Source: a virus
Virus record (IMG/VR): IMGVR_UViG_3300037502_002145
Coordinates: 1-64,000 of that record
Strand: one strand, 5' to 3'
Length of the DNA: 64,000 nt
Of this stretch, positions 48,408 to 60,597 are shown in pieces. Position numbers and translations under genes: made by a program. A model generated the notes under the pieces. The model ran no database searches, was not told the DNA's origin, and saw nothing but the letters and a program-made list of their open reading frames with translations. Each line of letters starts with the position of its first letter. Positions within the stretch are counted from its first letter, which is position 1.

Positions 48408-49364
48408 TTATTGATTTTCACGTATTTTACGCATAGTTTCTGTTTTTTTCTTTCTGCGATATGTCTTATAACATTCATCACATCTTGTTTTTGTCATGTT
48501 TCTTGCATCTACTTCAACTTTTACACCACAATCAGTGCATTGTATCTCTTTGGTTTCAATAGGAATATAATATTGTTTATGCTCACTGCAATATAATATA
48601 TCATGTTTCGTTTGTTTAAATGGTTGATTACAGTGCTTACATAGTTTTATATTAATTACATTGCTGTAAAAATCATAGTACCAGCCTATATTATCAAAGT
48701 TTTTAATAGTTATACAGACGTTACAATCATTGCCTGTCTTGCTTTCTTTTAAATTATTCAAATCATCCATGAAATTTAGTTTAATTAAACCATTGAACAA
48801 TACAGTAATTATCCCTGACTGCCCAAGTGAGTATATTATATCATCATTAATTTTAATTTTATCATTAATTTTTGATGCTTTTTTTAGATCATTATATTTT
48901 TTATTTCCGCCTTTAAAATATAACCCTTTTGATTCTTCACCGTTTTTTTGTTTACTTATATGTTTATTTAATTTCATTAGACACAATAAAGTAAAAACTA
49001 CTTTTTTGCAATCGTAACTAAATTTTACAATTTCACCATCTTCGTTACATATCTGCAAAGTATCAATATAAGCAAGTTCATAATCATAAACAGTAATTTC
49101 ATCAACCTTTATTAATGCGCTACCTTTTTTGCAGGCTTGATTTATTGCTCTGTTTATAATCTTATAGTGCTTAACTTTATTATATTCAGGTATGTATTTA
49201 CTACAAAAGTTATACATGACCTCTCTCAAGTCTTTTGGTTTATAATTTAAATATCTACGTAAGTATGTAGCAACCAATCTTAATTCTGTTACAATGTGTT
49301 TAGTTTGAAACCCATTTTCGTATATCGTCTTTGCATACTCTAATTCGTTATATTTGTAGTTCAT
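48408..49364 (-). CDS. RNAP-linked protein with C-terminal zinc fingers
   Basis: Starts 1 nt after the RNAP stop; C-terminal CxxC/CxxH/CxxC/CxxC. Confidence 0.7.
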   Translation of the reverse strand: MNYKYNELEYAKTIYENGFQTKHIVTELRLVATYLRRYLNYKPKDLREVMYNFCSKYIPEYNKVKHYKIINRAINQACKKGSALIKVDEITVYDYELAYIDTLQICNEDGEIVKFSYDCKKVVFTLLCLMKLNKHISKQKNGEESKGLYFKGGNKKYNDLKKASKINDKIKINDDIIYSLGQSGIITVLFNGLIKLNFMDDLNNLKESKTGNDCNVCITIKNFDNIGWYYDFYSNVINIKLCKHCNQPFKQTKHDILYCSEHKQYYIPIETKEIQCTDCGVKVEVDARNMTKTRCDECYKTYRRKKKTETMRKIRENQ

Positions 49365-49365
49365 T

Positions 49366-52281
49366 TTATATAGTTACCTCCTTCAATGTATAATTGTAAC
49401 CTAGATAGCTTAAATCTACTGTATCTCCAGTATTAGATTGAAATGGAAATAATACAGATGATTTATTTGTATTCTGCTTAATATTGTTGTATATTATTTT
49501 CCCATATGTAGACCACAACAAATCCTTATTACTAGAAGGCTTTTCTTTATAAAAGTAATCTACTAAACAGTTTACGATAATAATTTGATTACTACACACA
49601 TTCTTTAACCTATCGTAAAGGTTATCTGAATCAATTTTATATTCTTCGACTACATTTGATATGTCTTCAGCTTCATTTTCGTCGTCGCTTATTGATTGTT
49701 TGTCAAACTTTTTACTAACCATAAAGCTTTTTAATTCTTCTACGACTTTATCGTAATACTTCGCATATTCAAATGATTCATTTTTATACAATCTGTACAC
49801 TTCTTCATCTGTTTTAATTTTTGTGTGTTGAGATATATCAAAGTTAATCCCCTCAATATATTCGCATAATAAGTTCATAGAACTTTCACTATGTATTACA
49901 GGAGAGTGAGCATAAAAGTTATTTATAAATTCTTTTTGTATCTTAGTCTTTCTATTGAGATTTTTTAAGTCGCTAAATGGCATTTGAAATTTTTGTCTAC
50001 ATGTTATATCGTACTCTTCATAATATTTTTTATATTGTCTATTTGTGTCTTTATAAACATATCTAAAAAAATAAGGATATTTGTCTAGTAAAATGTTGTT
50101 ATACAATTGTTTTTTTCTTAATTTTCTACATTTGGTTAATTTTTTTGGATTCTTTGGTAATTTAATATAATTAACCCAAACCTTAGGGATACCCTTTACT
50201 GCCTTGCCTATTTTAGCCTTATCTATCTGAGCTGATTGAGCTTTACAGCATTGTTGAAGTCTGGACTTTAATAACTTATATTCAGTACTTTCAATACCAT
50301 ATTTTTTAATGATGTTTGGCAATAGAGCATATCCGTTACTTGATTTATTTGTTATAGACCCTATAATTGAACCAAATGAAAAAGTGTCTGATTCATATAA
50401 ATCTGCATCTGTAAATTTAATTTTCTTTGGTTTTGGAGCATCATATACGACTGGCAACTCATCTTTATAAACGTTATTCAATATACTTTTGTGAGATACT
50501 GTTGCTAAAATATCCATATCAAAATCACAGCCCGCGAAATTAACACATTCGTGACCAAAATAATTTAAAATAATTCCCAGTTCACAGTATTTATACCACT
50601 TGTTCACCTCATCGTCGTCTCTCAGGTTTAATATCACATGTTCAGACATATAGGTGAGAGGTGATCTCATTGCGTCTACTTGTTTTATATTTCTTTTGTT
50701 CCAATAATTAGAATAATATTCACCTTTTTTGAGTAAACCAGTTACTTCTAAGCCACAAACGTGTTGCATAAAGCCAAATGGATCAGATACAATAACTTGA
50801 AAATTTCCATCTACATAAATATCACCCTTACATGCGTTTTCAATTTTATGTCTAATCAAATCACGTATTTTTGAGCGTACATATTTATCACTTTTGATAT
50901 CATGATTAACAATTAAACTTTTAACTAAATAATTATCACTACTTGATAAAAAGTTGTTGATTTTATCGTTATCGTTGTTTACACCTAATAAAAATAGTAG
51001 CATGTAATAAACATTATCATAAGACACACCATTTATCCAGTCGACAAATTGACTTGCTAAATTCTCTACATCTTCTTTTGATAAATTTAATGTTTGTATA
51101 AACTGATAATTTAATTTCATCATATGCTTAGCTGCTTTTGGTGTATGAAGAGCGACCCCCCAATACAACTTATTCTTATGGCAATTATTAATGTATTCTT
51201 CCAGTGAATTGTAGCTATCCCATAATTTAAATTGTGATTCTGTAATTATAACTTCATAATCTCTTAAATCAGCTTTTATATAGTTACCATCATCACCTTT
51301 GTATATAGTGTCTACAATATAACTGCCATTATTAACTTCTTCGCAAAAATCATGAATAGGAAAAACACACAACATTCCTTTCATAAAACTTTGTCGTATA
51401 CAAAACTGAGAAGGGACATAGTCCAAACCTAAATCTTTAGCCCATATAGAAGCCTGTTTTGGAGATATTAAACCCATCCCATCAGTTCTATTCATTTTCA
51501 TATCTTTAATCTCTTTTTGTATTATGGTGTCATCAACATTCCAACCATTTTCAATTACGTAATTTGCTGTAAAGGTGTCAGTATTCTCAAAATCTTTAAC
51601 AACAATAAACTTAGGTTCACTAACAATCTTTGTCGCAGATCCGTACAAGCCAAAGTATGCATTAAATTTGCTTGGTGAAAATGATTTTTCTTTATTTCTG
51701 CCATTATCAAGTCTTTCTTTTACTAAATCAATTATTTCCGTATTGCAGAATATAACAGTAGATACTCTAGCTTGACTAGCAGAACAACTTAATCGTTTAT
51801 ATTCCTTGCCATTAATTATGAATCCGTTTTTATAGAGGTGGTCATATTGTTTTAGATTATCCATCACTACAACAACATAATCTTCAATAAACATTGTACG
51901 ATTAATTTTATCTTGAATTCTTTGAGCTTCATTGTTATAAACAGTTACGTCAAGGTACTTATTTTTCAATCTTTCAATTATCTTAGAATTGTTATTTACT
52001 TTTTTTATTTTGTTATTTATGATTTCTGTATATTTATTGTTTCTTTGTTGATATGTATTAGAATATTTATAATGATCACGAATTTTTATCAATAACTCTA
52101 TTTTTTTTCTGTCTACGCACTTATTTCTTATATCTCTTATAGTGCGTAGTATCTGATTATCAGAAAGTCCTATTATTTCTTTAAGATCTTTTGATTCATT
52201 AAATGTATTATTAATATTGTAGTCAAATTCTTTTAATCTACCTGAATGAAATTTACGCACATATAATGGTCTATTTGTCAT
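49366..52281 (-). CDS. Single-subunit YonO-like (RdRP-fold) DNA-dependent RNA polymerase
   Basis: 'S.SQ.R', 'RTDGMGLISP', 'FCIR..FMKG', 'RSP', catalytic 'GCDFDMD', 'IG.ITN', 'QIDKAK'; GGAGGT RBS before MTNRP. Confidence 0.85.
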   Translation of the reverse strand: MTNRPLYVRKFHSGRLKEFDYNINNTFNESKDLKEIIGLSDNQILRTIRDIRNKCVDRKKIELLIKIRDHYKYSNTYQQRNNKYTEIINNKIKKVNNNSKIIERLKNKYLDVTVYNNEAQRIQDKINRTMFIEDYVVVVMDNLKQYDHLYKNGFIINGKEYKRLSCSASQARVSTVIFCNTEIIDLVKERLDNGRNKEKSFSPSKFNAYFGLYGSATKIVSEPKFIVVKDFENTDTFTANYVIENGWNVDDTIIQKEIKDMKMNRTDGMGLISPKQASIWAKDLGLDYVPSQFCIRQSFMKGMLCVFPIHDFCEEVNNGSYIVDTIYKGDDGNYIKADLRDYEVIITESQFKLWDSYNSLEEYINNCHKNKLYWGVALHTPKAAKHMMKLNYQFIQTLNLSKEDVENLASQFVDWINGVSYDNVYYMLLFLLGVNNDNDKINNFLSSSDNYLVKSLIVNHDIKSDKYVRSKIRDLIRHKIENACKGDIYVDGNFQVIVSDPFGFMQHVCGLEVTGLLKKGEYYSNYWNKRNIKQVDAMRSPLTYMSEHVILNLRDDDEVNKWYKYCELGIILNYFGHECVNFAGCDFDMDILATVSHKSILNNVYKDELPVVYDAPKPKKIKFTDADLYESDTFSFGSIIGSITNKSSNGYALLPNIIKKYGIESTEYKLLKSRLQQCCKAQSAQIDKAKIGKAVKGIPKVWVNYIKLPKNPKKLTKCRKLRKKQLYNNILLDKYPYFFRYVYKDTNRQYKKYYEEYDITCRQKFQMPFSDLKNLNRKTKIQKEFINNFYAHSPVIHSESSMNLLCEYIEGINFDISQHTKIKTDEEVYRLYKNESFEYAKYYDKVVEELKSFMVSKKFDKQSISDDENEAEDISNVVEEYKIDSDNLYDRLKNVCSNQIIIVNCLVDYFYKEKPSSNKDLLWSTYGKIIYNNIKQNTNKSSVLFPFQSNTGDTVDLSYLGYNYTLKEVTI

Positions 52282-52371
52282 TAGATTTACCTCCAATTCT
52301 CCTTAAATATTATTTGTTTATTTAATGCCATTATCAAACCTCCAATTTCTTTGTTAGATATATTTAAAGTT

Positions 52372-52651: not shown

Positions 52652-53866
52652 TTAATGTTTTATATTAGTGCCGTTAGATACTTCATCAATCCATTGTATA
52701 AGTAGTTTTCTCATTCTACTACTTGGTATGTATAACCAAATTTCTTTATTTTCTCTTATTGCAGATCTCCATATAAACTGTAGCATTTCACTTACGGCAT
52801 AAGCATCTTCCTCAACAGTAATACCATTCTGTGTAAAGAAATTCTTAATGCAAGGATTAAAATATTTGTTAATCAAGTAAGCAACAGCAATTCTATCTCT
52901 ATATTCATTTGTTGCTCTAACATTGGAAGATACAAAGCCTTTGGCATAACCTTTACCTGCTACCAATGGTTTAAATTTTTTGAACGTAGTCCATAAGTTT
53001 TCACTTGATTTTGTTTTTGTATAATTCTTAAAATAATTACCGGTTGCATTCTTTAGTTGTTTCATTAATTGATTATTCTGATTCCTTAAATACCAAGTTT
53101 TTGAGAGGGATGATTCCATATCTCCTATACGATTAAGCTTTGCATTATCGCAAATATGTATTAATTTATTATAATCAGGTACTTTGTAATCAACAACCTC
53201 AGTAGTAAACTCATAGTTGTTTATATTGTCGCCCTTAATGTACAAATATGTATACTCAACCCCGTAGTAGTCATAGTAATACTTTTGAGTTTGAGCATTG
53301 AACATGTAGGTTAATATATAAATATTTCTAAATGCTCTAAAAGTAGTAATAGGGAACAACCACAACATAGCAACATCACTATATATGGCTAAACAATGTA
53401 AATCACATAACCTTTTTTCATCTTGAAATTTACCATCGTAATCTTTAGCATGCCAATTTAATAATCCATTCTCATCAACATGAACATATTTGTCTAGCAT
53501 AGTGTTTAAATCATCTTTAGATATCTCGTATGGTTCTATGACATCAGCCACCTCATCCATAATTAACGTATAATTATTAGCATAAGCAAGATCAATTATT
53601 TCTTCATCAAACATACTAAACAGTGAATGAGTAGATACAATATTGTATCCTTTCTCAAACAGATGTTTAATACCATTTAATTTACTTCCATATGTCTCTG
53701 GTTGTTTAAAATTTTTATTAACACAACTAGTCATTATTCTTTTTACTTCTGTCAGATATGGGGTTATGTATAAAAACTTTACATCATCATCTGAATTGTT
53801 AATAAAGTTTATACTACTGCTGGTCTTACCAGCTCCCATAACTGCATCAATTACATTTACATTCAT
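52652..53866 (-). CDS. Compact SF2 helicase-like protein
   Basis: Walker A 'MGAGKT', 'YITPY', 'STH.LF', 'IMDEV', 'ILTY', motif VI 'QFIWRSAIR'. Confidence 0.8.
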   Translation of the reverse strand: MNVNVIDAVMGAGKTSSSINFINNSDDDVKFLYITPYLTEVKRIMTSCVNKNFKQPETYGSKLNGIKHLFEKGYNIVSTHSLFSMFDEEIIDLAYANNYTLIMDEVADVIEPYEISKDDLNTMLDKYVHVDENGLLNWHAKDYDGKFQDEKRLCDLHCLAIYSDVAMLWLFPITTFRAFRNIYILTYMFNAQTQKYYYDYYGVEYTYLYIKGDNINNYEFTTEVVDYKVPDYNKLIHICDNAKLNRIGDMESSLSKTWYLRNQNNQLMKQLKNATGNYFKNYTKTKSSENLWTTFKKFKPLVAGKGYAKGFVSSNVRATNEYRDRIAVAYLINKYFNPCIKNFFTQNGITVEEDAYAVSEMLQFIWRSAIRENKEIWLYIPSSRMRKLLIQWIDEVSNGTNIKH

Positions 53867-54231
53867 TCAATTCTCCTTTCATTTTTCTAGAACCTTTTTT
53901 CTCTGATTTGGTTCTAACTCATTTTTAAAGAATGTAGTGTTTAATAGGGTTGTAGCGATTCGGATTTTATGGTTAAAAACATTAAAAGTTCTAAAATTTT
54001 TTACAAACCTAGTAAAATCAATGGTTGTAGCCTATACCCTTTAAGAGAGAAGGATATAAAAGTACTAAAATATAAAAATAATAATTATCTCTCTGAGAAA
54101 TGGCGTCTTTTTGCCATTTGGAAGAGACAGACATCGTTTGGCTTTTTCAAACGGTGGTTGCTATGTTTACACTAGTTATCCGTCTAAGATTAATTTTATC
54201 AATTTAACACCTCCTATGTTGAATAATTTTC

Positions 54232-54298
54232 AGTTTTATATTAATCTCATTAAACTATATCATACCAATGATTAGGTTGTCAACAGTTTTATATTAAT
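54232..54298 (-). promoter_or_regulatory. Sigma-A promoter of the helicase-RNAP operon, flanked by two ATTAATATAAAACT sites
   Basis: TTGACA (54283-54278)-18-(TG)TATAGT; identical 14-mers at 54232 and 54285. Confidence 0.7.
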
Positions 54299-54361
54299 TT
54301 CCTTAAATATTTTTAGTTCATTTTCTTTCTGTAGAGAAAGATATAAGCCATTGTAATTCTA

Positions 54362-54430
54362 TAGGTATATTAGTTATCCTTTTCATAGTTAAAATAGCTC
54401 TACCAAACTCACAGAAAGCCTAGGGATATT
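54362..54430 (+). repeat. 69-bp degenerate direct repeat, copy A (B 58605-58673, C 58794-58862)
   Basis: TAGGTA, AAAAT (+29), TCTAC (+37) and TAGGGATATT (+59) at identical offsets in all three copies. Confidence 0.8.
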
Positions 54431-54494
54431 CCTACATCATTATCTTAGGTGGTATTTCTATATAAATTGATAATAAGTACAAGCAGTTGATATT

Positions 54495-54599
54495 TTTCAT
54501 GTAAAATCATTAAATTACAGTCACATTTCATGTAAGTTTCTCATATAGTGTATTAACAAATCAAAATTATCAACAAATGTAGCATGATATTTCATGTAA
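54495..54599 (+). promoter_or_regulatory. parC-like repeats overlapping the parM promoter
   Basis: TTTCATGTAA at 54495, 54526 and 54590; ACA-16-CATAnnnT at 54523-54549. Confidence 0.55.
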
Positions 54600-54624
54600 T
54601 TACATTAATTTTCAAGGAGGCTAT

Positions 54625-55545
54625 ATGAGTAAGATTAAAGGATTGGATCATGGTTATCTCTATACTAAGGACAATGAGAAGCGTATATTTAGGTCAGCAT
54701 TTACTAAGTCAGGTTTAGCTATGGGAGCAACATCATTTATCACTATTAATGGAGTTGACCATTCTGTTGGTACTGGTAATAGAACAATTTCATTTGATAA
54801 AACTGATTCTGATATGAATGAGGTGGGAACATTAACAATGTTAGCTATGGACGGAGACAATGATTATTATCTTGTAGTTGGATTGCCTATAAGCCAATAT
54901 CAATCTCAAAAGGATAAGTTTAAGAAAATGATTATGGGATACAACGATAGAGAAGTAATATACCGTGGTAAGAAGATGGATATTAAGATTAACGATGTAT
55001 ATGTATTACCACAGGGAGTAGGAGCATTACTTAGTCTTGATGAGTTAAAGGGTAATATCGTTATATTTGACTTTGGTGGTTTAACTATTGATATTGCCAG
55101 TATAGAAATTGTATATGGCAATCCAGTGTTGAAGAAATATGATACATGGACTGAGGGAATACAGAAGATTTATTCTAGAGTGGTTAATGCAGTTAATGAG
55201 AAATATAATCTAACACTTGATGTATCAGAGGCAGAGAATATATTAGTTAATGGTTTAACTTTATATGGGGAGAAAGTGTCAACTGATTTTCTTGAGCCAG
55301 TATTAAGACAATATCTTGACCCTATACTAACCAATTTCAAAGTTAACTTTACCGATATTAATTCACAAGTTTATCTATGTGGTGGTAGTGCTATTATATT
55401 TGAGAGTTTGTTTAAAACACATTTTCCACATGCAAGGTTAATGTACAATAGTCAATTTGCTAATGCAATCGGATATCATAAGTGTGGCTTACAAAAGTAC
55501 GGACATTTATGTGACATTAAACCACAGCCGATATGTAGGAGGTAA
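54625..55545 (+). CDS. parM: ParM/StbA-family actin-like ATPase
   Basis: 'GLDHG...TK', 'VVGLP', 'PQG', 'FDFGGLTID', 'LCGGSA', 'ANA.GY'. Confidence 0.9.
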   Translation: MSKIKGLDHGYLYTKDNEKRIFRSAFTKSGLAMGATSFITINGVDHSVGTGNRTISFDKTDSDMNEVGTLTMLAMDGDNDYYLVVGLPISQYQSQKDKFKKMIMGYNDREVIYRGKKMDIKINDVYVLPQGVGALLSLDELKGNIVIFDFGGLTIDIASIEIVYGNPVLKKYDTWTEGIQKIYSRVVNAVNEKYNLTLDVSEAENILVNGLTLYGEKVSTDFLEPVLRQYLDPILTNFKVNFTDINSQVYLCGGSAIIFESLFKTHFPHARLMYNSQFANAIGYHKCGLQKYGHLCDIKPQPICRR

Positions 55546-55550
55546 TTGTT

Positions 55551-55844
55551 ATGGGTAAGAAGAAAATTAAGTCTGAAGATGATAGGCTAAAAATTGAAGT
55601 GACATTTAAGAAAACAGAATTTGAAAGAGATTTGTACTCACGTATAGATATGAGCAGTATAATGATTGGTAAAGCAGTGTGGATGAAAATAGCAGCATTA
55701 GAGAAATTGGAAAGAGATGAGAATCAATCATTTTATAGGCAATCAGATGAATATAAAAATAATCAATATATTCAACAAGAACATAAAGATGATATTCCAT
55801 TAGCAGAAGAAGGATTAAATAACTTGTTGAGTATGTTTAGCTAA
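55551..55844 (+). CDS. ParR-like adaptor
   Basis: Directly after parM; N-terminal beta-strand/helix 'IEVTFKK...E.DLY', low-complexity acidic tail. Confidence 0.55.
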   Translation: MGKKKIKSEDDRLKIEVTFKKTEFERDLYSRIDMSSIMIGKAVWMKIAALEKLERDENQSFYRQSDEYKNNQYIQQEHKDDIPLAEEGLNNLLSMFS

Positions 55845-55856
55845 AGGAGGTCTTCA

Positions 55857-57119
55857 ATGGCAGCAAAGAAAAGTTTTAAGAAGAATATCGTTACTAACAG
55901 TATGTATTCATTACTAAGTGGAGTTGGATTACAGGCTTTAATGCCTATGTTTGTTGAGAATGGAGGTGGTACTGAAAATCTATTGTTATATCTGTTAAAG
56001 GCATTTGGTATATTGGGTATATTCTATTATGCATGGACTTGGAGTAAATTTGATAAGCTATTTGAGAATTTAGGGCTAGGTATAGATGGTGCTTACCCTA
56101 TAATGAAAAGTAAGCGTAAGACAGATTATAGCGAGATATATAAGTTTACATTACCTAGAGGATTGAGTTTGGCTGACTTTGATAAGCATAAAGATGCGAT
56201 TGAACAATTCCTCGGCAGAAAGATAGATATTAAGTATACTTACAAGGAGATTTATATTGAGGTGTACAACGAGAATCAGAAGACGTTGTATGAATATGTA
56301 CCTACTAAAATTAAAGGTGAAGTTCCTATTATGGTGGGATATGACCGTAAGGGTGAATTACATGGTTGTGATTTATCAGATGGTGAACCACATATGGGTA
56401 TCTATGGAGAAACTGGTAGTGGAAAAAGTACCGTGCTTAGAGCTATAATAACCAATTTAATTCTTATGTCGAATGTTATACTTCATCTAGTGGATCTTAA
56501 AAATGGTGCAGAACTTAATATTTTCCGTAAGTCTAGTAAGGTTAAAAGTTTTTGTAGGAGTATTAATGAAACAGAAAAGTTACTCGAAGATTTAGTTTCT
56601 GAGGTTGATAGACGATATGATTTGTTTTATGAAAATGATGTTAAGGACATAAAAGAGTATAATAAAAAATTCAAAAATAAGAAAATGAATTATCAGGTGT
56701 TAGTTATAGATGAGTTTGCAGACTTAAAGCCAAAGTCCGATAGTATGAAGAGCTTAAAAGAACTAGGACGTAAAAGTAGAGCATCAGGAGTCCACATCAT
56801 AATTGCGACTCAAAGACCTTCATCTACAGTGTTAGATGGAGATATTAAAGCCAACGTAACCTCTATACTTGGCTTAAAAACCATGAATGGAACAAATAGC
56901 TCAGTAGCCATGGATGAAACTGGATTAGAAAAATTAAGAGGTAAAGGTCATGGTATATTTAAGCGTGGGGGAAAAGTTGAGATTCAAGCTCCATTCTTAG
57001 ATCCGGATAGAGCTAGAGATCTAATTAAGCATACGTTTATTGATAAGAAAGTTGAAAAAGAAGTCAAGAATGGTAATGTATCAGAGGATAGTATATTAGA
57101 GGCGGTGAGTAATTTATGA
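55857..57119 (+). CDS. Membrane-anchored FtsK/SpoIIIE-family ATPase
   Basis: Two N-terminal TMs; 'PH..I.GETGSGKS', 'VDLK.G.E', 'VIDEFA', 'ATQRP', 'L.GKGHG'. Confidence 0.92.
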   Translation: MAAKKSFKKNIVTNSMYSLLSGVGLQALMPMFVENGGGTENLLLYLLKAFGILGIFYYAWTWSKFDKLFENLGLGIDGAYPIMKSKRKTDYSEIYKFTLPRGLSLADFDKHKDAIEQFLGRKIDIKYTYKEIYIEVYNENQKTLYEYVPTKIKGEVPIMVGYDRKGELHGCDLSDGEPHMGIYGETGSGKSTVLRAIITNLILMSNVILHLVDLKNGAELNIFRKSSKVKSFCRSINETEKLLEDLVSEVDRRYDLFYENDVKDIKEYNKKFKNKKMNYQVLVIDEFADLKPKSDSMKSLKELGRKSRASGVHIIIATQRPSSTVLDGDIKANVTSILGLKTMNGTNSSVAMDETGLEKLRGKGHGIFKRGGKVEIQAPFLDPDRARDLIKHTFIDKKVEKEVKNGNVSEDSILEAVSNL

Positions 57120-57676
57120 CAACTAGAGATAGTGCGATTGTTAATTTTCTAAGTGATTGTAAAGTGGCTAGAACATCTACAATTGCTGAGATATTCTTTC
57201 CAAGTCCACATGCGTGTTATAAACGACTACAGGTGTTGTATAAAAATAAAAAGGTTAAGAGGACGAGAGATTTTGTATCATGTGAGTATGTATATCATTA
57301 TAAAAAGAATCTACCCCAACAATTAACACATAGTTTGCTGGTTACTGACTTTTATCGTGAGCTGCATAGGAAGTGTGAGGTGTTAAGCTTTAAGATTGAG
57401 CCTGTAATGGATAATATACGACCAGATGCAGTATTTGGCTATAAGTTTCATGGTAAGCCTTATATGGGGCTATTAGAGGTTGAAATAAGCAATAAAGGAT
57501 TTAATAGTGGTAAGTATGAAAAATTTTATTCTAGTGGCGATTATAAGAAGTTTTTACCGGTTATGCCTACTATATTTGTTGTTGGGAATAAGGAGAAGAT
57601 TAAATTACCAAAGGACAGTAAAGTTAACTATAACGTAATAGACTTGGAATTTAATGAGTTTAGACTATATGTATAA
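57116..57676 (+). CDS. Replication-relaxation (Replic_Relax) family protein
   Basis: 'T.RD..I..FL', 'RL..L', 'H.L.V.DFY', 'IRPDA', 'LEVE'; overlaps the FtsK stop. Confidence 0.75.
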   Translation: MTTRDSAIVNFLSDCKVARTSTIAEIFFPSPHACYKRLQVLYKNKKVKRTRDFVSCEYVYHYKKNLPQQLTHSLLVTDFYRELHRKCEVLSFKIEPVMDNIRPDAVFGYKFHGKPYMGLLEVEISNKGFNSGKYEKFYSSGDYKKFLPVMPTIFVVGNKEKIKLPKDSKVNYNVIDLEFNEFRLYV

Positions 57677-57683
57677 AAGACTT

Positions 57684-57722
57684 AAAGGGTGGATGTAAAA
57701 TAATCCCCCCTTTATTTTTTTT
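57684..57722 (+). terminator. Intrinsic terminator after the par/FtsK operon
   Basis: AAAGGGTGGAT...ATCCCCCCTTT plus T-run. Confidence 0.7.
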
Positions 57723-57768
57723 GTTTATTTGTTTTAATATTGGACATACTGTGGGTGAGGTGAAGTCT

Positions 57769-58302
57769 ATGGAAGAGTTAATAATTTTAGTATTGATATT
57801 ATATTGTATGTATGCATTTGGTAATCAGTTTACTAAGATAGAATATCAAAAATTTAAGAATAATAAGCCAGTAGGAGATATTGGTGAGAAAATAGTTAAG
57901 AGTAGACTAGATAGATTATCTGATGAATTTGTTGTTTCTCATGATGTTTATTTTGGTAATGCCCAGATAGATCATCTAGTTGTTAGCCATGAGAAGAATA
58001 TTATATTTGTGATTGAGACTAAGATGTGGGGAGGTATTATTACTGGGGAATGTAATGATGCTAAGTGGGAACAGAATAAGGGTGGTCAGATTAAGTATTT
58101 AGATAATCCTATGATGCAGAATAAATATCATTGTAGGGTGGTAAGAAAGTATTATCCGGACTATAAAGTTTACAATGTTGTTGTCTTTGTGAGAAATACA
58201 AACGTACCAAATTACCCTAGCGTTATGAATGAGAATAATTTAGTTGATTATATTTATAGGGTATCTAAAAAGGTATCTAATAGGGTTATAATTGGGGTAT
58301 AA
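57769..58302 (+). CDS. NERD-domain nuclease-like protein with N-terminal TM
   Basis: 'G..GEK.V', 'QIDHLVV', 'FVIETK..GG', 'NP..QN..H'; GAGGTG RBS. Confidence 0.88.
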   Translation: MEELIILVLILYCMYAFGNQFTKIEYQKFKNNKPVGDIGEKIVKSRLDRLSDEFVVSHDVYFGNAQIDHLVVSHEKNIIFVIETKMWGGIITGECNDAKWEQNKGGQIKYLDNPMMQNKYHCRVVRKYYPDYKVYNVVVFVRNTNVPNYPSVMNENNLVDYIYRVSKKVSNRVIIGV

Positions 58303-59480
58303 ACAGATTGGTTGTCTATATCCCTACATATCTAGCTTTTATCATATTTAGGACAAACTTTATTAATCCTTTATCATCATTTTTACTGCTGCTACTACTT
58401 CCCCCTCTCTCAACCCTTTAGTCTGTGGTTTGCCTTTTCCCGTTTGCACACTCTGTTGTTTCCCAGTAGCGTACATTTATGTATTCATTCATTATAGTTA
58501 TAGTATTGACATAATGACGATGAATTATACTTGTTTGTAGAATGTAATATATGGAAATTTTAAAAGTAGTTTTATATGGGCTGTTTTAAGCGTTTATTTT
58601 TGTTTAGGTATAGTAGATATCCTAAAATGATTTAAAATGTGTCTACGGACGTGTAGGAAAGCGTAGGGATATTGTTATACATAAAGATTTAGTGTGGAGA
58701 TTAGATATTAGATAAATGAGATTTATATGCTGGTTGATTGTGGTAATTAAAATATATTAAATATTTGAAAGGATTTAAGCTAGTTTTATATTGTAGGTAA
58801 GGTTTATATCACCCAAGTGGTAAAAATGGCTCTACGGGCTTATACGGAAGTCTAGGGATATTATAAATTAATTATATATGTGGTGATTACAATTAAGCAG
58901 ACCTTTTGGTAATATGATCTGCTTATTGTGTTGATGATAATTTGTGGGGAGTATATCAAAAATATCACTGGGATAGTTTAAAGGATTATTTGGGTTAAGT
59001 CAATGGTAATAATTTGAAAACTTCGGTGATGGTATAGTTTGAAGTTGGAGTTTTGTTAGTCGTGATAAGGGTTTGAGGGGATTTTATGGTGTGATATATT
59101 GGGTTAAGTTTGAGTGATAAAAGTTGTAAATTTGGGTGATTTGGGTATGATTCGGAGAAAAGCCAGTGTTTATAAGGGTTTGAGAGATTTGTGGTGATTT
59201 TGGTGAAGTCGGGTAATTGAGTAGGAAAAGTGTGGAGATGGTTGATTTTACTAGGGTTGTCGGATTTTAGGGTTGTATAATTATACATAATGGGAGTGAG
59301 TTTGGTGGGTGAGTTAAAATGGCTGGAATGGTTGATTTTAGTGGGTTTTACCGAAGTGGGTATCGAATAAAAATGGGGGAAATTTGGGGGAAATTGGGAT
59401 GGGAGTTGGATTTTTGAGGTAAGAGGTGAGTGGAATAGATAGGGGCTATTTGGCTATAGAAAAAGTGTCTAAAAATGTAA

Positions 59481-59497
59481 ATATACCCGGGGTATAT
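59481..59497. other. Palindrome ATATACCC-G-GGGTATAT at a strand-composition switch
   Basis: G/T-rich plus strand to the left, C/A-rich to the right. Confidence 0.55.
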
Positions 59498-59749
59498 AGA
59501 TAAATAATGTCATACATTAGTATAGTAATATATGATATTTACTAGTGTTTTAAAGGTTAATATGGTTTTATGTAATTTTACCATATTAACTATTATGTGA
59601 TATTAGTTGAATTGTGACAGTAAGTGGGATCAAGCTTAAAATGTATAGTATACTTTGCATTATTATCATTAATCTGGTATGGTTGATATTAATAATTGAC
59701 AGTGCCAGAGTTCGTTTTAGTCACTTTACTTTTTCAAGTTACTAAAAAG

Positions 59750-59845
59750 TTATCCACAATCTATCCACATTTCTATCCACAATATTCATCTCAATCACAA
59801 AAGTTATCCACATTATCCACATAGTTATCCACCGGTTTATCCACA
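59750..59845 (+). promoter_or_regulatory. Cluster of seven co-oriented DnaA boxes
   Basis: TTATCCACA at 59750, 59804, 59813, 59837; one-mismatch boxes at 59761, 59773, 59825. Confidence 0.85.
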
Positions 59846-60263
59846 ATACATTATGAATAACTATTCACTATAAAGCATAATATTACATCTATGTATATCC
59901 TACTAATTTACTCAGATATAAACTTTACTGACTACTTACCACAATTCAGTCACTATAATATTCATATCAATTTACTATGCATACTATATATTAATAATCT
60001 ATTTAGACAACTATCGAATTAGTTTATCGCTCTAACCATAATCCTAACTGGAAATAAAATATATCAATATTAATCCAATACTATTATACCACACCAAGTC
60101 AACCGGTTACACCAAACTTGATCCAAAATCCATTCTATCACCTACAATATATAGTACCCAATCCCAAGTAATCCCACTCATAACCACTATATATAGCATA
60201 GCAAACTGCACAAATAATAACTATATATACCCAATATATTTGGTAATAATTACACCAATAAAA

Positions 60264-60306
60264 CTAATATAAAACTATAGACAAATAAGTTGAACTATGA
60301 TATAAT
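60264..60306 (+). promoter_or_regulatory. Early-region sigma-A promoter with upstream CTAATATAAAACT site
   Basis: TAGACA-17-(TG)TATAAT at 60278-60306. Confidence 0.75.
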
Positions 60307-60597
60307 AAAGATAGTTAAAGAAGAGATACACAAGTAACCAACAAACCCAATAAGTCGCAAGTCGCACACACTGTACAATGATAATTGAATATAGGTTTTA
60401 AATTAACAACAGTAATATAACACAATGTAATTATATCATACTAGCAACTTATAACTGAAATAATCTTGATACCTGAATCAGAGTAGGATATACACGAAAA
60501 GATGGAGGATAAAACAACAGCAAAAATAAATTGTTATGACTTGTTAGTATTAATAAATACATTGTAACAAACAAAAAATATAATGGAGGTATTCACT

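Follow-up and report, generated by a model that had tools for sequence, protein, structure and literature searches.

A ParM partition cassette joined to an FtsK-type motor and a predicted nuclease: a probable minimal DNA translocation operon in a large SPbeta-like phage

Introduction

A block of phage genes termed the DNA translocation operon has been described for phage 0305phi8-36, in which orf200-207 encode a relaxase of the MobC kind, a coupling ATPase, and proteins resembling VirB6 and MreB/actin, with partial versions being present in SPO1, GBSV1, and the gamma/Wbeta/Fah group (PMC3357382). Deletion of this operon from 0305phi8-36 caused no growth defect in the laboratory (PMC3357382). 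Here, we analyze a related island in the IMG/VR virus record IMGVR_UViG_3300037502_002145, a viral contig of 115,871 bp with a G+C content of 30%, of which the first 64 kb constitute the stretch under study (64,000 nucleotides, hereafter referred to as the window). A four-gene operon on the plus strand (54625-57676) encodes a ParM-type actin-like protein, a small ParR-like adaptor, an FtsK/SpoIIIE-type ATPase, and a predicted nuclease distantly related to Replic_Relax proteins (RR), followed by a terminator and a gene for a NERD nuclease (Table 1). With a probability of roughly 60%, we consider that a minimal DNA translocation operon of the Clostridia type and a type II ParMRC cassette are fused in this island, the parts of which act as one unit.

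The succession of an actin-like gene, small proteins, a coupling-type ATPase, and an overlapping gene for a MobC-like winged helix-turn-helix (wHTH) nuclease is shared, in the same order, with the operons of SPO1 and 0305phi8-36. In SPO1, gp27.9 (actin-like) is followed by four small proteins, gp27.4 (ATPase), and the overlapping gp27.3; ParM of the window is a remote homologue of gp27.9 and RR a remote homologue of gp27.3. The ATPases differ, that of the window being a 420-aa FtsK/TcpA type with a transmembrane (TM) anchor, whereas gp27.4 is a 906-aa VirD4/TraG-like protein without homology beyond the P-loop. In contrast to the operon described by Pathria and colleagues, the window operon contains no VirB6/TrbL-type (as judged by Pfam) or pilin-like gene, the island adds NERD, clear centromere repeats, and a putative ribbon-helix-helix (RHH) adaptor bearing a tail for ParM, and its phage is SPbeta-like and temperate, with a host range of the Clostridia type. 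Overlapping ATPase-RR pairs after a small gene are further found in gamma/Wbeta/BtCS33 phages, DLc1, 268TH007, Bacillus/Priestia plasmids, and c-st (CST193/194), with an RR keeping the H..EP..PD..EVxxS motifs. Unlike in the window, the small upstream protein of these phage pairs is a two-TM or XRE-type helix-turn-helix (HTH) protein and not of the RHH kind, and neither ParM nor NERD accompanies them.

In common with ParMRC systems (R1, pSK41; Cbc-ParM, Alp12) and AlpAC of CGP3, the locus has repeats, an actin-like ATPase, and a tailed small adaptor in the standard order; in contrast to them, its adaptor gene leads into a DNA motor and a nuclease within one operon, and its adaptor family also serves motor-nuclease pairs without ParM. 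N-terminal TM segments combined with an FtsK-like ATPase are likewise the layout of TcpA from pCW3, and a PD-(D/E)xK “relaxase” with an N-terminal HTH and a coupling-protein gene directly upstream is shared with CloDF13 MobB/MobC and modules of integrative and mobilizable elements (IMEs). Conjugative and IME modules differ in that the window has no encoded mating channel or known oriT, and its pairing of a TcpA type with a MobC type is not that of IMEs. SpoIIIE and FtsK belong to the same PF01580 superfamily and are membrane-anchored as well, but the window ATPase has no FtsK_gamma match, at most two instead of four TM segments, half the size, and a closer relationship to TcpA.

Adjacency of Replic_Relax and FtsK genes to partition systems is on record for plasmid prophages (PMC9658697; PMC11526630), and this kind of gene block has been known since 2012 (Pathria, PMC3357382), the window holding a minimal variant of it. 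New are the shared adaptor with a ParM-dependent tail, the conserved NERD partner, and, for the Clostridia branch, a conserved promoter of sigK/E-like appearance. Hundreds of Bacillus and Clostridium phages and plasmids have genes annotated as FtsK/SpoIIIE-like and “replication-relaxation”, without an assigned purpose. The present locus represents a compact five-gene version of this theme, comprising an operator repeat, an adaptor tail that tracks ParM, a co-evolving motor-nuclease pair, and a promoter resembling those of the mother cell.

Composition and conservation of the island

A preliminary description of this DNA, made from its letters and open reading frames (ORFs), had read the island as an operon of ParM, a ParR-like adaptor with three upstream repeats, a two-TM FtsK/SpoIIIE ATPase, and an overlapping Replic_Relax protein, followed by a separate, TM-anchored NERD nuclease. 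All five genes are found where it had placed them, with ParM, FtsK, and NERD being recognized by Pfam and with the linkage of RR and adaptor being conserved in relatives. The ParMRC reading was borne out by the ParM motifs, the exact upstream repeats, and the adaptor following in order. Two details could be upheld in part: the two TM segments of the ATPase, and the assignment to Replic_Relax (both see below).

Table 1. Features of the island and its boundaries, given in positions of the window
Feature	Position	Strand	Remarks
69-bp repeat, copy 1	54362-54430	+	TAGGTA ... AAAAT ... TCTAC ... TAGGGATATT; upstream island boundary
parC-like centromere/operator (candidate)	54495-54599	+	three exact TTTCATGTAA repeats
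Conserved promoter element GTCACA-N-CATATAGT	54520-54554	+	between repeats 2 and 3; AC 17 nt before CATA
ParM-type actin-like ATPase, 306 aa	54625-55545	+	Pfam, PHROG, and PDB matches
ParR-like adaptor, 97 aa	55551-55844	+	RHH-like core (~13-57), linker, C-terminal helix 86-96 (GLNNLLSMFS)
TcpA-like FtsK/SpoIIIE membrane ATPase, 420 aa	55857-57119	+	PF01580, TcpA similarity
RR, predicted winged helix and PD-(D/E)xK nuclease core, 186 aa	57116-57676	+	distant Replic_Relax/MobC relative
Intrinsic-terminator-like hairpin with U-run	57676-57724	+	dG -15.8 kcal/mol, z -3.3
Membrane-anchored NERD (PD-(D/E)xK) nuclease, 177 aa	57769-58302	+	PF08378
69-bp repeat, copies 2 and 3	58605-58673, 58794-58862	+	downstream island boundary

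ParM matched the Pfam families ALP_N (3.7e-15) and MreB-like_C (1.2e-7) as well as PHROG 691 (“partition protein”, 2e-47), its best relatives in the PDB being Cbc-ParM (4e-11) and Alp12. Its motifs for phosphate and adenosine (DHG, DFGG, and GGS) are all intact. Upstream of the gene, exact copies of TTTCATGTAA, a near-palindrome around CATG, begin at 54495, 54526, and 54590 within 105 bp; no others occur in the window and only one more in the whole 116-kb genome. Repeats are found in the same position in relatives, namely two copies each of TTTCATGAAA in locus L050, TTTCGTGAAA in L051, AAGTTATAAAT in L052, and TAAATTTCTATGAATT in L074. Those of L052 and L074 are unrelated, the upstream repeats changing along with the adaptor. 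This co-variation is the behavior expected of a ParR protein and its centromere, the roles predicted here for adaptor and repeats.

For the adaptor itself, no close homologue was detected in a library of 5.8 billion proteins, and there was no sequence match in Pfam, PHROG, or PDB. The small ORFs located at the same position in relatives align with it as one family (alignment A5, 13 members) sharing the core VSFK..E..LY..I...S..W(I/V)KD. Its leads in the ESM Atlas were RHH/MetJ/CopG proteins, and an AlphaFold2 model based on the family alignment displayed a strand-helix-helix core (pLDDT 87-93) and a separate C-terminal helix. In the fold search, Z was at most 4.3, with RHH proteins among the weak matches only; as this result was not significant, the RHH fold is one that we infer. 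All 11 distinct adaptors linked to ParM carry an extension of 20-40 aa with a terminal hydrophobic motif (LLSMF, LLGVF, LLDSF, LLDF, DLF, IMF, PMF, or ILGI), whereas family members without ParM (L056, L082, and L060) end right after the core and possess a Q-rich N-terminal extension instead. This distribution points to an amphipathic C-terminal tail that would engage ParM. Since the family also precedes ATPase-RR pairs lacking ParM, the predicted adaptor can be assigned to the motor-nuclease module no less than to ParM.

The third protein matched PF01580 (5e-26) and contains Walker A (GETGSGKS), Walker B (VLVIDE), and TQRP motifs, an intact arginine-finger region, and, in place of the RAAG motif, RASG within “SRASGVHIIIATQRP”, a segment spanned by the TcpA alignment. 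To TcpA of pCW3, it is 32% identical over 260 residues (E 6e-31). Its best solved relative is the PDB set 6o1w-6o1z with 98.8 bits compared with 77 for FtsK, and a search with pCW3 TcpA against PDB identified this set as TcpA residues 99-462. No match to Pfam FtsK_gamma was obtained at E values up to 0.01. Of the hydrophobic segments, the one at residues 42-60 is strong; the other, at about 14-33, is weaker and stays below the strict threshold, which leaves the proposed two-TM topology plausible with one segment well defined.

RR scored 20.5 bits against PF13814, below the cut-off of 25.3 and with its N-terminal HTH part only. Among 72 detected homologues of the family, many that are 60-67% identical carry PF13814 in a precomputed table, and PHROG 9996 and 9381 were matched as well. 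By hhalign, RR aligned with SPO1 gp27.3 at E 2.8e-5 with the PD and EVE motifs in register. The Replic_Relax label thus fits the homologues and the kinship to gp27.3, although the window protein on its own falls short of the Pfam threshold. Across 31 sequences (alignment A3), D104, E121, S125, and K127 are invariant and H72, E95, and E123 nearly so, which agrees with the published placement of Replic_Relax in the PD-(D/E)xK superfamily (PMC3424549) and its equation with MOBC relaxases (PMC5357655). The AlphaFold2 model (pLDDT 94.6) consists of an N-terminal winged helix, matching MarR-type domains with Z values of 8-10, and an alpha/beta core. The wide fold-search list for RR was taken up by matches to the wHTH domain and says little on the nuclease domain; with Foldseek, the core gave weak matches to Bax1, FokI, McrC, and NucS, none of them at E < 1e-3. 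We predict RR to be a wHTH and PD-(D/E)xK nuclease of the Replic_Relax/MobC kind. The NERD protein matched PF08378 at 1.1e-22 (81.1 bits, cut-off 22.1), contains DHL and ETK motifs, and has a single N-terminal TM segment (residues 3-22), so its membrane anchor agrees with the preliminary description.

We found the order ParM, small ORF, ATPase, and RR in diverged loci of viral and metagenomic origin, numbering at least 12 (L050, L051, L052, L053, L054, L062, L063/64, L065, L070, L072, and L074/75), in which ParM is between 67% and 35% identical to that of the window. Linkage of NERD extends to nine loci and takes two forms: a homologue follows RR in L062, L063/64, L065, L067, L070, and L071, and in L050 and L051 it lies divergently and directly upstream of parM, the repeat-bearing intergenic region being common to both genes. 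When each protein is compared with its counterpart in the window, the identities of ATPase and RR rise and fall together (Spearman 0.79, p 0.004), in contrast to those of ParM and ATPase (rho 0.10); cassettes therefore appear to be exchanged by recombination with their linkage being kept. Searches seeded with the ATPase had revealed close ATPase-RR pairs without ParM, located behind a holin (L005), a LexA-type HTH protein (L007), and a tyrosine integrase (L008), and for this reason ParMR and FtsK-RR were first held to be chance neighbors. This reading was dropped after searches with an RR profile had yielded 12 loci with the full operon. Judging from their recurrence across diverged loci, the five genes constitute a real and conserved functional neighborhood.

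Outside of these loci, the Bacillus phages BtCS33, DLc1, and 268TH007 contain the ATPase-RR pair behind a small membrane protein. These small proteins were considered as adaptor homologues and ruled out, not being homologous. In c-st (L045, 1285-6591), the FtsK-like CST193 and RR-like CST194 genes lie divergently beside the TubZ/TubR genes, and in a 35-kb Paraclostridium plasmid FtsK-RR adjoins ParM.

Within the window, the end of the FtsK gene and the start of the RR gene share 4 nt (57116-57119). The NERD gene lies outside of the four-gene transcript barring read-through, since the RR gene runs into a stable hairpin and U-run. Downstream of the RR stop codon, GGTGTAGGGAAACTTAC is conserved in the close relatives L050 (9545-9577) and L051 (9553-9585), and GTAGGGATA-type motifs occur after NERD in the window.

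Promoters and host distribution

In B. subtilis, sigK/E promoters have AC or a kmATAww box 13-17 nt upstream of CATAnnnT(A). A sigK/E promoter in the parM leader and a sigF/G promoter in the NERD leader had been proposed from single sites. Both motifs stand at the positions indicated for them (54523-54549 and 57723-57750, respectively), and as single sites they occur at chance frequency: ACA-N16-CATANNNT has five matches in the window with 5.5 expected, and GTTTA-N14/15-GGNNANANT has one with 0.57 expected. In comparison across loci, the parM proposal gained ground. The leader in the window reads cACa-N17-CATATAGT, and the same layout (AC-N16/17-CATAnAnT) is kept in relatives and c-st. CATAnnnT lies 16-100 nt before the parM start in 10 of 12 ParM loci as opposed to 13% of same-size background windows, and CATATATT, containing the same element, precedes the adaptor gene in loci without ParM. 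When 15 loci were aligned on CATA, AC was present 16/17 nt upstream in nine, compared with 10.7% of 338 background CATAnAnT sites, and a kmATAww box with at least 5/7 positions in 14, compared with 50% of background sites; the loci are mutually related, and binomial values consequently overstate the significance of these counts. TTGACA-like boxes were not enriched (3/15 loci versus 14% of the background). Even in c-st, the RR of which is 25% identical, GTCACACATTT ... CATAGTATA is located 49 nt before CST192 and is of the same GTCACA...CATAnnnTA type as in the window. In the Bacillus phage cassettes examined for it, the CATA element was absent.

Positions 3-8 of the element double as a sigA -10 box (TAnAnT, often TATATT), and the parM site can also be read as a weak sigA promoter (GTCACA-18-TATAGT, 9/12). 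It is a fair conclusion from these alignments that the putative parM promoter is conserved, has no sigA-type -35 box, and has conserved bases of the mother-cell (sigE/sigK) type; it may alternatively depend on an activator or another polymerase. In L053, L070, L054, L063, and L074, TGGTAT(C) is found 6 or 16 nt upstream of the CATA element.

The sigF/G promoter of NERD could not be maintained. With the -10 motif ending at 57750, that is 6 nt before the Shine-Dalgarno (SD) sequence (57757-57762; ATG at 57769), the transcription start site would fall inside the SD. The motif is absent upstream of NERD in L050 and L051, L050 having a sigA-like TTGTAT-18-CATAAT.

As a possible indication of a sporulation link, co-occurrence of these genes in elements of spore-formers had been suggested as a check. 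The Bacillus-type RR was found by tblastn in 26 phage records, all with Bacillaceae hosts save two with doubtful labels, and in 348 plasmids, all from endospore-forming Bacillales genera and none from Staphylococcus, Enterococcus, Listeria, or lactic acid bacteria. The window-type RR matched only Clostridium botulinum phages (tblastn). Named homologues of RR belong to Anaerocolumna (Lachnospiraceae, Clostridia), most others being derived from bioreactor and digester metagenomes. This apparent restriction of FtsK-RR, in the databases searched, to elements of endospore-formers would be compatible with a link to sporulation; phylogenetic confinement and the limited range of tblastn would explain it equally well. 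A census of PF13814 in one class gave 66 positives among 401 genomes, which come without taxonomy and permit no spore-former comparison. The “Listeria” phage LIS04, considered as a case from a non-spore-former, has an FtsK, but belongs by classification to the SP-15-type viruses and has no annotated RR. In the two doubtful records, HE614281 (SpaA1, Staphylococcus label) and MW302330 (TS-12, Stenotrophomonas label), FtsK-RR is 100% and 69% identical, respectively, to that of B. cereus-group phages, and their host labels look unreliable.

Proposed function and competing explanations

Considering the island as a fused translocation and partition unit, we envisage that the adaptor would bind the TTTCATGTAA repeats on a circular, non-integrated or excised phage genome and that its tail would recruit ParM filaments, which would push the DNA toward the membrane or a pole. 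At that site, a hexameric TcpA/FtsK-like motor anchored in the membrane may act on the same DNA together with RR (co-evolving and site-specific) and the membrane-bound NERD, the DNA being cut or nicked and translocated or cleared. It might be destined for a daughter cell at the closing septum, a forespore, or a neighboring cell reached via a helper channel. Given a conserved promoter that resembles those of sigK/E and not those of sigA, the module probably serves in some special state of the cell and not during ordinary lytic growth.

Several points weigh against this proposal. The RHH fold of the adaptor is weakly backed by the fold search, and the comparison with ParM-less adaptors comprises three loci (L056, L082, and L060), L060 being cut at the contig end. 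FtsK-RR pairs exist without a partition system in BtCS33, DLc1, L005, L007, and L008, so coupling to ParM is optional. The only experiment on any member, the 0305phi8-36 deletion, gave no laboratory phenotype (PMC3357382). VirB4, VirB6, and pilin-like channel proteins are not encoded in the phage, as judged by Pfam on the island proteins, in which no channel-type families were detected, and by a VirB4/AAA_10 search of the 116-kb genome, which returned nothing beyond the P-loop of FtsK itself. Finally, the FtsK gene of phage Fah is reported to be a delayed gene of lytic growth and read by the sigA RNA polymerase (PMC4113786).

A simpler function would be plasmid maintenance only: a low-copy circular prophage is partitioned by ParMRC, the ATPase clears copies trapped at the septum, and RR and NERD, situated near the origin, aid replication start, multimer resolution, or decatenation. 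ParM and RHH adaptor systems are typical of plasmid prophages (PMC8026635), and FtsK-RR is situated beside TubZRC in the plasmid prophage c-st, ParABS in RBClin15, and ParM in the Paraclostridium plasmid. A cluster of seven DnaA boxes in the same orientation, four of them perfect, occupies 96 bp (59750-59845) at a distance of 1.4 kb downstream from NERD, in a gene-poor stretch of 2.3 kb where the GC skew climbs to +0.8 and flips to -0.59 (58800-60200), making this region a candidate origin or DnaA-titrating site. The contig moreover reads as a circle: its IMG/VR class is linear with a completeness of 81% estimated by CheckV, but since a coherent HAD-type (DxDGT) ORF of 182 aa spans the end-to-start junction (115728-115871 joined to 1-404), the record is probably a closed circle in fact. 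Against maintenance as the sole function, the phage encodes a large serine recombinase of the SPbeta/Ccr type (535 aa, 720-2327), matching the serine integrase of the preliminary description, and an MrpR-like repressor, and the same FtsK-RR pair is present in integrating and lytic phages. RR is not needed as an initiator, because the phage has its own DnaB-type helicase and Pol III alpha subunit. An integrase alone is no argument against partition, as had been assumed earlier on the grounds that an integrating phage should not need it; the integrating prophage CGP3 uses the AlpAC partition system (PMC4446434; PMC8026635). Altogether, we regard a pure maintenance role as conceivable but rather doubtful.

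Delivery into the forespore, the function put forward in the preliminary description, would imply that the operon is turned on by sporulation sigma factors and that the genome, carried to the polar septum by ParM and cut or nicked by RR, is pumped from the mother cell into the forespore by the motor. A sporulation role of phage FtsK/SpoIIIE proteins has been suggested earlier as speculation (PMC4113786). The conserved promoter with its sigK/E-defining bases and no sigA -35 box, c-st included, speaks for such a role, as do the detection of the Bacillus-type RR only in phages and plasmids of endospore-formers and of the window type only in Clostridium phages, and the Anaerocolumna names on RR homologues. 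In addition, vegetative growth in the laboratory does not require the related operon, which is also present in lytic phages, where plasmid maintenance would be senseless. This evidence is countered by the chance frequency of the single-site motifs and the failure of the NERD promoter, by the alternative reading of the taxonomic restriction given above, and by a motor with a conjugative coupling protein as its nearest relative, two TM segments instead of four, and no match to Pfam FtsK_gamma. Furthermore, a sigK-type (late mother-cell) promoter acts after engulfment and is a poor fit to this route, and no genes for small acid-soluble spore proteins or sigma factors came up when the phage genome was searched for these proteins and sigma-70. 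Weighing both sides, forespore delivery in this form appears unlikely.

A related idea is that of a rescue device belonging to phages and plasmids of endospore-formers and expressed in the mother cell, in which ParM would carry the adaptor-bound circle to the septal pole after formation of the asymmetric septum and a self-sufficient TcpA/FtsK-like membrane motor and its cognate nuclease would move a copy into the forespore. Should it be true, the element could ride in the spore without virions and without integration; we likewise think the odds are clearly against it. In case the promoter reading holds, the old speculation on phage FtsK in spore carriage becomes directly testable. If it is false, the island is still a partition system sharing a predicted centromere-binding adaptor with a DNA translocase.

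Conjugative mobilization has less in its favor. Here, a TcpA-type coupling protein, a MOBC-type relaxase, and an RHH relaxosome factor would hijack the mating channel of a resident element, comparable to CloDF13 MobB/MobC and streptococcal IMEs. The closest solved relative of the ATPase is indeed pCW3 TcpA, its gene lies upstream of and overlaps a relaxase-like gene, PF13814 is the MOBC family, and a coupling protein, a relaxase, and a serine integrase make up a known IME layout (PMC5357655). IMEs, however, pair TcpA with relaxases of the RCR type and MobC with VirD4 (PMC5357655), no parts of a type IV secretion system were found and no oriT was identified in the phage, the module is present in lytic phages, and 228 of the 348 plasmids with the Bacillus-type pair were called non-mobilizable by MOB-suite. 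Mobilization is accordingly judged quite improbable. Defense or superinfection exclusion, with the membrane ATPase and two PD-(D/E)xK nucleases, one of them membrane-bound, destroying incoming DNA, can practically be dismissed, given that the generic matches of the NERD and FtsK domains to SspH, MADS, and PglW are of shared domains only, no PADLOC system model fits the gene set, and the kept linkage to ParM, adaptor, and centromere repeats has no role in defense. An NCBIfam scan of the island proteins yielded nothing more specific.

Flanking sequences and phage genome

The three 69-bp copies (TCTAC-N-TAGGGATATT) bounding the island all lie on the plus strand and share blocks conserved at fixed offsets; the 116-kb genome contains no others. 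They had no match in Rfam and fold no better than shuffled sequences, and their motif was not found around the islands of relatives, in which it was sought. They could be binding sites, promoters, or insertion scars, and as an oriT they are no more than candidates. An Rfam search of 53800-60500 returned nothing, and a DNA search of the island against phage records gave no match. Two near-consensus sigA promoters with an extended -10 box, at 54254-54283 (minus strand, TTGACA-18-TATAGT) and 60278-60306 (plus strand, TAGACA-17-TATAAT), are directed outward from the island and gene-poor region, in the direction of the late and early gene blocks.

The phage is large, temperate, and SPbeta-like, originating from anaerobic Firmicutes. 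It encodes a YonO-type single-subunit RNA polymerase (49366-52296, minus strand; Pfam RdRP 5e-17) with 46% identity to that of Bacillus phage BUCT082, directly followed by a 318-aa protein without Pfam match (48408-49364, minus strand). Two OrfB_IS605/Cas12f-like (TnpB-type) genes are located in the early region at genome positions 70616-71836 (L047:6616-7836) and 87492-88538 (L048:3492-4538).

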